This document shows, piece after piece, positions 24,001 through 27,000 of a stretch of DNA of 64,000 nucleotides. The DNA comes from Escherichia coli (GTDB taxonomy: Bacteria; Pseudomonadota; Gammaproteobacteria; Enterobacterales; Enterobacteriaceae). Made by a program: the position numbers. The stretch lies in assembly GCF_041248615.1 (NCBI RefSeq), contig NZ_CP158426.1, one strand, 5' to 3'. How positions within the stretch are numbered: position 1 is the first letter of the stretch; each line of letters starts with the position of its first letter.

Positions 24001-27000
24001 CTTTTTCTTAAGCACAAAGGAAAATAGCCCGCTGCTACCTGTAAAGTCTCGTTTCCAGAATTCGTGGCCTTTACTGCCAGGCAGAGCAGGGTGGTTAACT
24101 CGCGCTACTTGCGGATGTTCTGCCAGCCATTTGGCCACTTTCAGACTGCTTTCATGATGTTGACGCAAACGCACACCTAATGTGCGCAGGCCACGGCTGG
24201 TTATATAGGCGGTATCGGCATCGACCATCTGGCCCATCAGGTAGGCATTCTCCCGTAGTTGCTCCCAGCAACGGGCATTGCACACCGCAGTGCCAATCAT
24301 CGCATCTGAATGCCCAACCAGATATTTGGTGGCGGCCTGAATAGAAACATCGATGCCAAAATCCAGCGCCTTAAACAGCACACCGGCTGCCCAGGTGTTG
24401 TCGATCATAATGATGGCATCCGGCACCACACTGCGTACGGCGGCAACAATCGCCGGAACGTCGTGGACTTCCATGGTGATGGATCCTGGGGATTCCAGAA
24501 ATACGATTTTGGTGTTTGGCTGTAGATACTTAACGATATCGGCACCAATCAGCGGATCAAACCATGATGTCGTTACGCCCAGTTTGCTGAGGATTTTGCT
24601 ACAGAAATCCTGACTCGGTTCATAGGCGGTGTTGGTCATCAACACATGATCGCCCTGTTCGACAAAAGCAAGAATAGAATTAGCAACCGCCGCCGCCCCG
24701 CAGGGGAACAGCACGCAGCCTGCGCCACCTTCCAGTTCGCACATCGCCTCTTGTAAGGAGAAATGGGTTAACGTTCCGCGCCGTCCATAAAACAACTCGC
24801 CATTGGCGCGATTGCGCGTCGCGTGTTTTTTGGCTTCCACACTGTCAAAGACCAGCGAAGAAGCGCGCTGAATCACGCTATTTACCGCGCCGAGAGTGTA
24901 TTTTTTGCTGCGTCCTGCATTCACCAGTTGAGTATCAAGCTTTTTGTCCGCCATCTCGGGATTCCTGTTTTTATACGTCTGGATGTCTAAACTAGCATGA
25001 ATATTCGCGGGCGCATCCTGAAGAATTGGCATAAAGCAGAAAATTTTCGCAAATGGCGTGCTGGTGACTTTTTTACTGCGTAAACGCAAGGAAAAGAAAG
25101 CAAAGGTACGGCAGTATGCAAATAGTAATGAGAACGACTATCAATTCGACGTCGTTTTGATATTATTATGCGCAGATTTTGTGACTTGCGTCCTGGAGAT
25201 ACACAGTGGGTAATAATTTAATGCAGACGGACCTTTCCGTCTGGGGTATGTATCAGCACGCCGATATTGTCGTTAAGTGCGTGATGATTGGGCTTATTTT
25301 GGCCTCCGTAGTCACCTGGGCAATCTTCTTCAGTAAGAGCGTAGAGTTCTTCAATCAGAAGCGTCGCCTTAAGCGCGAGCAGCAACTGCTGGCTGAAGCG
25401 CGTTCCTTAAACCAGGCCAACGATATCGCTGCTGATTTTGGTAGCAAAAGCTTGAGCCTGCATTTGCTCAATGAAGCGCAGAATGAGCTGGAACTGTCAG
25501 AAGGCAGCGACGATAACGAAGGTATTAAAGAACGTACCAGCTTCCGTCTGGAGCGTCGGGTCGCCGCAGTAGGTCGTCAAATGGGCCGTGGTAACGGCTA
25601 TCTGGCAACCATCGGCGCGATTTCGCCGTTTGTGGGTCTGTTTGGTACGGTCTGGGGCATCATGAACAGCTTTATTGGTATCGCGCAAACGCAGACCACT
25701 AACCTGGCAGTCGTTGCGCCGGGTATTGCAGAAGCTCTGTTAGCAACGGCAATCGGCCTCGTGGCAGCGATTCCGGCGGTCGTTATCTATAACGTATTTG
25801 CACGCCAGATTGGCGGCTTTAAAGCGATGCTGGGTGATGTTGCAGCGCAGGTATTGTTGCTGCAAAGCCGTGACCTGGATCTGGAAGCCAGCGCCGCTGC
25901 GCATCCGGTTCGTGTCGCACAAAAATTACGCGCAGGATAATGTCCGATGGCAATGCATCTTAACGAAAACCTCGACGATAACGGCGAAATGCATGATATC
26001 AACGTGACGCCGTTTATCGACGTGATGTTGGTTCTGCTGATTATCTTTATGGTGGCGGCACCGTTAGCGACGGTAGATGTGAAGGTGAACTTGCCTGCTT
26101 CTACCAGCACGCCGCAGCCGCGCCCGGAAAAACCGGTTTATCTGTCGGTGAAGGCAGACAACTCGATGTTTATCGGTAACGATCCGGTCACCGATGAAAC
26201 AATGATTACGGCGTTGAATGCGTTAACTGAAGGTAAGAAAGACACCACCATCTTCTTCCGAGCGGATAAAACCGTCGATTACGAGACGTTGATGAAGGTA
26301 ATGGATACGCTGCATCAGGCGGGTTACCTGAAGATAGGTCTGGTCGGCGAAGAAACTGCCAAAGCGAAATAAAAATGATGCCCGGTTGCTTTTCACAACC
26401 GGGCATTTTTTTAGCCTAAATGCTCGCCGCCGCACACGCCATGCACTTCTGCGGTGACGTAGCTAGACTCCTGACTTGCCAGATAAACATATACAGGGGC
26501 CAGTTCCGCCGGTTGCCCCGCACGCTTCATCGGCGTTTTCTGACCAAACTGCGGGATCTTATCCTGCGTCTGTCCGCCGGAAATTTGCAGTGCTGTCCAG
26601 ATCGGGCCTGGTGCAACAATATTCACACGAATACCTTTCTCCGCGACCTGTTTTGCCAGGCCTCGGCTGTAGTTCAGAATCGCCGCCTTCGTAGCCGCAT
26701 AGTCCAGTAAATGCGGGCTTGGCTGGTATGCCTGGATTGACGAAGTGGTGATGATACTGGCACCTTTCGGTAGCAGGGGTATCGCTTCCTGGGTTAGCCA
26801 GAACAGTGCGAAAACGTTAATGGCAAAGGTCTTTTGAAACTGTTCGCTGGTGAGGTCTGCAATATCAGGAATGGCAACCTGTTTCCCGGCGACCAGCGCC
26901 ATAATATCCAGCCCGCCTAAGGCCTTATGCGCTTCGTGAACCAGCGAACGGGCAAATTTCTCATCGCTTAAATCGCCTGGCAGCAGAACGGCTTTGCGTC

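Follow-up and report, generated by a model that had tools for sequence, protein, structure and literature searches.

Published MetJ and Fur operators in the divergent metC-exbBD control region of Escherichia coli, and a conserved block that accompanies exbB

Introduction

The intergenic DNA between the divergent genes metC and exbB of Escherichia coli carries operators for MetJ and Fur that are already published, and the control they exert is textbook regulation. The metC operator of strain K-12 (b3008), as listed by Augustus & Spicer (2011), reads agacatccagacgtat and consists of two metboxes with a combined score of 18.92 bits, 18 bp from the ATG (PMC3228920, Table S1). It has been described as the shortest natural MetJ operator (PMC2650099), and an 18-bp metC operator duplex is known from the literature to bind two MetJ dimers with an EC50 of 96 nM in the presence of S-adenosylmethionine (SAM) versus 2900 nM in its absence. 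MetJ gel-shifts metC-exbB intergenic DNA, and exbB is not under MetJ control in vivo (PMC3228920). The same study mentions a reporter assay on known E. coli MetJ-regulon genes in K-12 and puts the share of enterobacteria with metC metboxes at only about half.

On the exbB side, a Fur box was first noted by Eick-Helmerich & Braun in 1989, as cited by Chen et al. (PMC2189734), and Fur regulation of exbB and exbD is reported in the latter paper and in work cited there. Chen et al. (2007) described at exbB a cluster of three overlapping Fur sites in 31 bp, the strongest of which scored 19.1 bits at K-12 coordinate 3150076 (older numbering; position -70 from the start codon), and obtained a gel shift with 150 nM Fur (PMC2189734). 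No DNase footprint of either MetJ or Fur on the metC-exbB region was found in the literature searched, and searches on the exbB promoter returned nothing new.

Results

A divergent control region nearly identical to that of K-12

The DNA analysed here is a 64-kb stretch of an E. coli chromosome (hereafter the window). A reading of this DNA made from its letters alone (hereafter the sequence-only reading) had proposed that positions 24955-25205 form a divergent metC-exbBD control region with candidate MetJ and Fur operators. The open reading frames and the RefSeq annotation agree with that arrangement, the 251-bp gap being the intergenic region between the two transcription units [Table 1]. It corresponds to positions 3151985-3152235 of K-12 MG1655, from which it differs at a single base (position 24955, C versus G, beside the metC start codon), so that the K-12 literature is directly applicable to it. 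Among 5426 complete E. coli genomes, 5422 carry the surrounding segment 24700-25500, with the genes metC and exbB, at 95-100% identity. An Rfam scan of 24855-25305 at E-values up to 1 gave no match, and thus no known RNA element in that interval.

When conservation was profiled over 27 Enterobacteriaceae sequences, the region resolved into six footprints: 24967-24991 over the metboxes, 25071-25092 over a block of unassigned function, 25123-25150 over the Fur site, 25153-25165 over a -10 element, 25175-25181 in the 5' untranslated region and 25192-25200 over the exbB ribosome-binding site. The conservation of the last of these speaks for translation of exbB starting with the GTG at 25206.

Table 1. 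Features of the metC-exbBD locus, in window coordinates.
Feature	Start	End	Strand	Sequence and position	Basis
metC coding sequence, cystathionine beta-lyase	23767	24954	-	ATG at 24954-24952	ORF list; RefSeq annotation of identical or near-identical E. coli records; K-12 b3008
Probable metC ribosome-binding site	24963	24966	-	AGGA (metC strand)	Sequence; partly conserved among the aligned Enterobacteriaceae
MetJ operator, two tandem metboxes	24973	24988	.	Boxes at 24973-24980 and 24981-24988	Identical to the K-12 metC metboxes (PMC3228920, Table S1)
Putative metC extended -10 element	24989	24997	-	TGCTAGTTT (metC strand); TGnTAnnnT 43 nt 5' of the ATG, adjoining the metboxes; implied start ~24982	Pattern and conservation
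Conserved block, function unassigned	25071	25092	.	TTTTACTGCGTAAACGCAAGGA; overlaps GNAAA pentamers at 25080, 25090 and 25100, 10 bp apart	Footprint in 27 Enterobacteriaceae sequences
Fur operator (extent beyond core probable)	25115	25145	.	Core 19-bp 9-1-9 site 25127-25145, AATGAGAACGACTATCAAT, centre 25136	Published gel shift; held-out matrix; conservation
Putative exbB extended -10 element	25158	25166	+	TGATATTAT; hexamer 25161-25166; implied start ~25173	Pattern and conservation
exbB ribosome-binding site	25195	25198	+	GGAG, 7 nt 5' of the GTG	Within conserved block CCTGGAGAT (25192-25200)
exbB coding sequence	25206	25940	+	GTG at 25206	ORF list; K-12 b3006
exbD coding sequence	25947	26372	+	exbB and exbD together span 25206-26372	ORF list; K-12 b3005

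The MetJ operator of metC

The tandem met-box-like octamers that the sequence-only reading had seen just upstream of metC are present at the very bases it gave, and read ATACGTCT (24973-24980) and GGATGTCT (24981-24988) on the strand of the window. On the metC strand, the latter becomes AGACATCC (8.96 bits with the published matrix), in agreement with the metbox consensus AGACGTCT at six of eight positions, and the former becomes AGACGTAT (9.96 bits), in agreement at seven of eight; the two adjoin in exact 8-bp register. Rescoring with the matrix of PMC3228920 (Table 3), in which a consensus box is worth 12.58 bits, gave 18.92 bits for the array. Both boxes and their total exceed the published MetJ thresholds, which are at least 3.15 bits for each box (a quarter of the consensus score) and at least 12.58 bits for the array. 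No more than two arrays clear these thresholds across the 64 kb, the one at 24973-24988 being the higher-scoring. When the 64 kb was dinucleotide-shuffled 30 times, no total of at least 18.9 bits appeared; of 2000 shuffled versions of the intergenic region, 0.05% gave one. The published matrix was seeded with E. coli sites including metC, which introduces a slight circularity; the effect is small, since the final matrix was built on 832 half-boxes.

The octamers on either side of the pair score -8.7 and -9.4 bits, and the metC array is therefore made of exactly two boxes. A third metbox at 24989-24996 was considered and ruled out (-9.4 bits). The pair lies 18 bp 5' of the metC ATG, where it adjoins a conserved TGnTAnnnT motif, and thus within the range typical of MetJ operators (~75 bp from the start codon). 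In sequence, 24973-24988 is exactly the published K-12 metC operator, as the sequence-only reading had proposed in assigning the pair to MetJ.

The Fur operator of exbB

The sequence-only reading had also pointed to a Fur-box-like dyad upstream of exbB at 25120-25147 (AAATAGTAATGAGAACGACTATCAATTC). This interval encloses the published, gel-shifted site and can be narrowed to the 19-mer 25127-25145, which lies wholly within it; conversion of the K-12 coordinate of Chen et al., after calibration of the offset on several genes, placed the centre of the published site at 25136. For scoring, a symmetrised 19-bp Fur matrix (consensus AATGATAATAATTATCATT) was derived from other K-12 sites proven by footprint or gel shift, 16 in number and taken at the coordinates of Chen et al., exbB itself being left out. 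With this held-out matrix the exbB 19-mer scored 19.5 bits and ranked first among 63,982 positions of the window, ahead of the next two at 15.0 and 14.0 bits, and its score falls within the range spanned by the 16 training sites (19.2-29.2 bits). Shuffling the 64 kb 100 times produced a score of at least 19.5 bits once, and shuffling the intergenic region 5000 times did so twice. The 19-mer agrees with the Fur consensus AATGATAATnATTATCATT at 14 of 18 arm positions. The segment 25127-25145 is the published K-12 exbB site. To the left, the operator probably reaches as far as 25115 by way of weaker overlapping sites at shifts of 6 and 12 bp.

Two further elements in the neighbourhood were considered and set aside. 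A second Fur site at 25154-25170 (TTTTGATATTATTATGC) was ruled out at -26 bits or lower; in Erwinia, Pantoea and Dickeya, the same positions read TGGTATGAT or TGGTATCAT, a promoter element that does not resemble a Fur site. A 12-bp inverted repeat (TATCAATTCGAC/GTCGTTTTGATA) was judged to be a by-product of the Fur right arm and the extended -10 element, given that neither its inner arms nor the n of TGnTAT are conserved.

Scored with MetJ and Fur matrices, both operators thus stand well above threshold and beyond chance expectation, and comparison with the experimentally supported (gel-shifted) K-12 sites locates them where the sequence-only reading had put them.

Putative promoters and conservation across Enterobacterales

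A scan of the metC-exbB region for sigma-70 promoters and terminators returned no canonical promoter and no terminator, an outcome to be expected of a method that needs a good -35 element and is blind to extended -10 promoters. Conservation and pattern suggest that metC and exbB both have extended -10 promoters. To follow these elements and the operators through the order, ExbB was searched for in one genome per species, which yielded 80 loci, 56 of them with a usable metC lying divergently upstream (four more metC matches failed the filters). The 56 loci span Escherichia to Serratia, Yersinia, Photorhabdus, Xenorhabdus and Providencia.

On the metC side, TGnTAnnnT was found 30-75 nt 5' of the ATG in 41 of the 56 orthologous regions, with conserved TA and CA columns. 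With the implied start site, the metboxes would span roughly -6 to +10 of metC. On the exbB side, TGnTATnAT follows the Fur centre by 22 bp in 53 of the 56 orthologs and by 24 bp in the other three, the 8-10 intervening bases being variable. With the start that this element implies, the Fur 19-mer would occupy about -46 to -28 of exbB, that is, the -35 region.

The orthologous 19-mer is the top match to the Fur matrix at every one of the 56 loci (17.7-24.4 bits), with the overall pattern AATGA[G/T]AA[C/T]nACTATCA[A/C][T/A/C]. Its substitutions fall at the centre base, which may be G, T or C, or else go towards the consensus (for instance G to T at position 6); the freely varying centre agrees with the prediction of the 9-1-9 model. 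The metboxes follow another distribution. Within the Enterobacteriaceae, pairs lie 13-22 bp from the ATG (43 bp at one locus, L037), and Serratia has arrays at a different distance. None were found at the loci of Erwinia, Pantoea, Tatumella, Dickeya, Yersinia, Photorhabdus and Providencia among the 56, a pattern in agreement with the published estimate for enterobacteria given above. With metboxes limited to the Enterobacteriaceae and Serratia and a Fur box everywhere, the two modules are separable in evolution. The exbB Fur box and its spacing to the extended -10 element are near-invariant across the Enterobacterales, and the metC metboxes represent an acquisition or loss at the level of families.

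Discussion

Two repressor modules placed back to back

We conclude that the metC-exbB interval is very probably a back-to-back control region made of two independent repressor-operator modules, MetJ on metC and Fur on exbBD. Behind this conclusion stand identity in sequence with the published operators, the scores from the matrices, conservation and the in vitro binding reported in the literature; the promoter elements, start sites and occlusion geometry are our own deductions. With SAM as co-repressor, two MetJ dimers would sit side by side on metboxes 24973-24988, which begin directly after the putative metC extended -10 element, so that RNA polymerase would be excluded when methionine and SAM are abundant. 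Iron-loaded Fur would bind the 9-1-9 repeat at 25127-25145, probably together with the weaker overlapping sites to its left, and would thereby cover the -35 region of the extended -10 promoter of exbBD, turning off transcription of the TonB energising complex under iron sufficiency. As each operator sits on a conserved, putative extended -10 promoter, each repressor is expected to block its own gene, and the two operators, 139 bp apart, would act without cross-regulation. Both geometries fit simple steric repression.

The operators themselves are the published K-12 MetJ and Fur operators, and the finding is to that extent already known. That two textbook operators were recovered at their exact bases from the raw sequence alone has little importance beyond the demonstration itself; what the comparison adds is modest, namely the conserved spacing of the Fur box to the -10 element, the distribution of the metboxes, the putative extended -10 promoters and one block linked to exbB.

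Other readings of the region

The proximity of the two modules raises the question of a shared control region in which MetJ would also act on exbBD, or Fur on metC, coupling iron uptake to methionine and sulfur status. No more than 251 bp separate the two divergent genes, their arrangement is conserved across the Enterobacterales, and the fragment bound by MetJ doubles as the upstream region of exbB. Against this, the operators, with 139 bp between them, each lie on a promoter of their own (as deduced above), many lineages keep the Fur box and the gene order without metboxes, and the exbB gene of one locus (L010) retains its whole upstream module without metC; action of MetJ on exbB is in addition largely refuted by its lack of MetJ regulation in vivo (PMC3228920). 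We consider coupling of this kind highly improbable. A less remote, still improbable, reading is that 25115-25145 is conserved as the core promoter of exbB, with TATGCA at 25115-25120 as the -35 and TATCAA at 25139-25144 as the -10 hexamer, Fur binding being either incidental or directed to an operator that spans -36 to -6. A TATGCA-N18-TATCAA arrangement can indeed be read in the sequence and both hexamers fall in conserved columns; yet the conservation follows the 9-1-9 layout of Fur, with its free centre and its changes towards consensus, unlike that of sigma-70 hexamers, a much better TGnTATnAT element lies downstream at the near-constant distance described above with a variable spacer between, and a Fur gel shift has been published (PMC2189734). 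Even if these hexamers were the real promoter, Fur would still occlude them, and the geometry alone would change.

More weight attaches to the block at 25071-25092, through which, together with the GNAAA repeats that continue to 25104, a third regulator may act: CpxR, another OmpR-family protein, or the factor behind an FNR ChIP-chip signal. Such a regulator would add envelope-stress or anaerobic control of exbBD, supplementing the MetJ and Fur modules rather than replacing them. Within the Enterobacteriaceae the conservation of the block equals that of the operators, and in 25 loci its spacing to the exbB start is constant. It is also retained at L010, a locus at which the gene upstream is not metC but an unrelated one transcribed in the same direction, and on these two grounds it belongs with exbB. 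The segment 25080-25094 (GTAAAcgcaaGGAAA) differs by one mismatch from the CpxR-type pattern GTAAA-N5-GTAAA, and a CpxR matrix screen of 2022 lists GGAAAagaaaGCAAA (25090-25104), which overlaps the block, as a weak candidate for exbB-metC. The mRNA levels of exbB and metC are altered under NlpE overproduction, and a ChIP-chip peak of FNR has been reported at exbB/metC. Other observations speak against a third regulator. The CpxR screen was highly permissive: it gave more than 6000 sites and its candidates were picked at random, and the third pentamer of its candidate here is not conserved; matches resembling GTAAA-N5-GTAAA occur in the 64-kb window at chance frequency (5 observed versus 3.55 expected). 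The qRT-PCR changes were not clearly CpxR-dependent, that of metC being equal with and without cpxR (0.08 versus 0.06). The original paper gives no FNR site for the ChIP-chip peak, and no match to TTGAT-N4-ATCAA with two mismatches or fewer was found inside 24955-25205. Pluralibacter gergoviae (L027), finally, is without the block yet keeps both operators. On balance we regard control by a third regulator as possible but unlikely. The narrower proposal, that the block with its helically phased GNAAA pentamers is a putative operator of an uncharacterised third regulator of exbBD, such as an OmpR-family protein (CpxR) or the factor responsible for the anaerobic repression of TonB-system genes, is somewhat more doubtful still and is put forward tentatively. 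If true, this would subject the energising complex of iron uptake to an input that does not depend on Fur.

Comparison with known systems

Set beside the K-12 metC operator (PMC3228920), the operator in the window has the same 16 bp (AGACATCCAGACGTAT), the same distance to the ATG, the same score and the same flanking DNA, with no difference in the operator itself. The exbB site likewise consists of the same 19-mer at the same position (-70) as in the K-12 cluster (PMC2189734), with no difference in sequence; the published score is 19.1 bits and that of the held-out matrix 19.5 bits. The two analyses differ in their count of sites, three within 31 bp according to Chen et al. and the core site only with the held-out matrix, which gives no positive score to the flanking sites of the published cluster. 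Compared with other Fur-repressed promoters of the TonB system, such as those of tonB and fepA-fes, whose Fur boxes belong to the matrix training set or to Table 3 of Chen et al., exbB likewise carries a 9-1-9 Fur site on the (putative) core promoter of an iron-uptake gene. The upstream region of K-12 tonB contains no sequence resembling the conserved block of exbB. Its score resembles those of the weakest proven sites (fepA-fes, yahA and fecA, 19.2-19.9 bits), and it has one strong Fur site where promoters of the tonB and fepA-fes type have several.

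Further matches in the window and conserved sequence upstream of exbB

Table. Sequence features in the window
Feature	Position	Sequence	Score (bits)
Second-ranking Fur-matrix match	18546-18564	GGTGAAAATCGTTTTCATA	15.0
Third-ranking Fur-matrix match	39969-39987	AATAATAATATTTTGCGTT	14.0
Second MetJ array	13828-13843	AGACGGCCAAACATAT	13.97
Conserved block (extends to 25104)	25071-25092	TTTTACTGCGTAAACGCAAGGA	
12-bp inverted repeat	25139-25162	TATCAATTCGAC/GTCGTTTTGATA	

Two further matches to the Fur matrix are found in the window [Table]. The second-ranking one lies at the start of yqhH, in the yqhG/yqhH gap, and may represent a weak candidate Fur site, given that scores of at least 14 bits arise at a mean of 0.28 per shuffled window. 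The third is flanked by an IS3-family insertion element and the lipoprotein metalloprotease gene sslE, in an arrangement whose exact IS configuration is common to only 5 of 5426 genomes. Apart from the metC metboxes, a single array in the 64 kb exceeds the published MetJ thresholds; because chance alone would yield about 0.9 arrays of this kind in each shuffled window, it is probably fortuitous.

Between the metC and exbB promoters lies a conserved block whose spacing to the exbB start is constant in 25 Enterobacteriaceae loci, and which is retained in a locus (L010) where an unrelated gene replaces metC upstream of exbB. GNAAA repeats spaced 10 bp apart overlap this block, as does a weak CpxR candidate from the literature. 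Closer to exbB, the Fur site's right arm and the predicted extended -10 element are linked by a 12-bp inverted repeat; since the inner positions of the repeat differ among species, it is probably a by-product of these two elements. An FNR ChIP-chip peak devoid of an FNR motif was reported in the exbB/metC intergenic region (PMC1802558); its position, 3150195 in the older K-12 numbering, corresponds to approximately 25017 in the window. A search of this region for TTGAT-N4-ATCAA, allowing up to two mismatches, found no occurrence. The same FNR list includes nohA and nohB, both of which carry strong Fur sites.

Annotation of exbB and comparison with other genera

The product of exbB (25206-25940) is named "tol-pal system-associated acyl-CoA thioesterase" in all eight RefSeq E. 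coli records listed among the genomes that match the window, a name proper to YbgC; the K-12 product name is "Ton complex subunit ExbB". The RefSeq naming looks like a propagated annotation error.

In Serratia, Rouxiella, Yersinia, Providencia, Xenorhabdus and Photorhabdus (loci L050, L053, L055 and L057-L068 of the ExbB scan), the Fur box is located 290-560 bp upstream of the segment of ExbB that is alignable with the E. coli protein. This distance is consistent with an N-terminal extension of ExbB such as that described in Serratia (PMC9008036).
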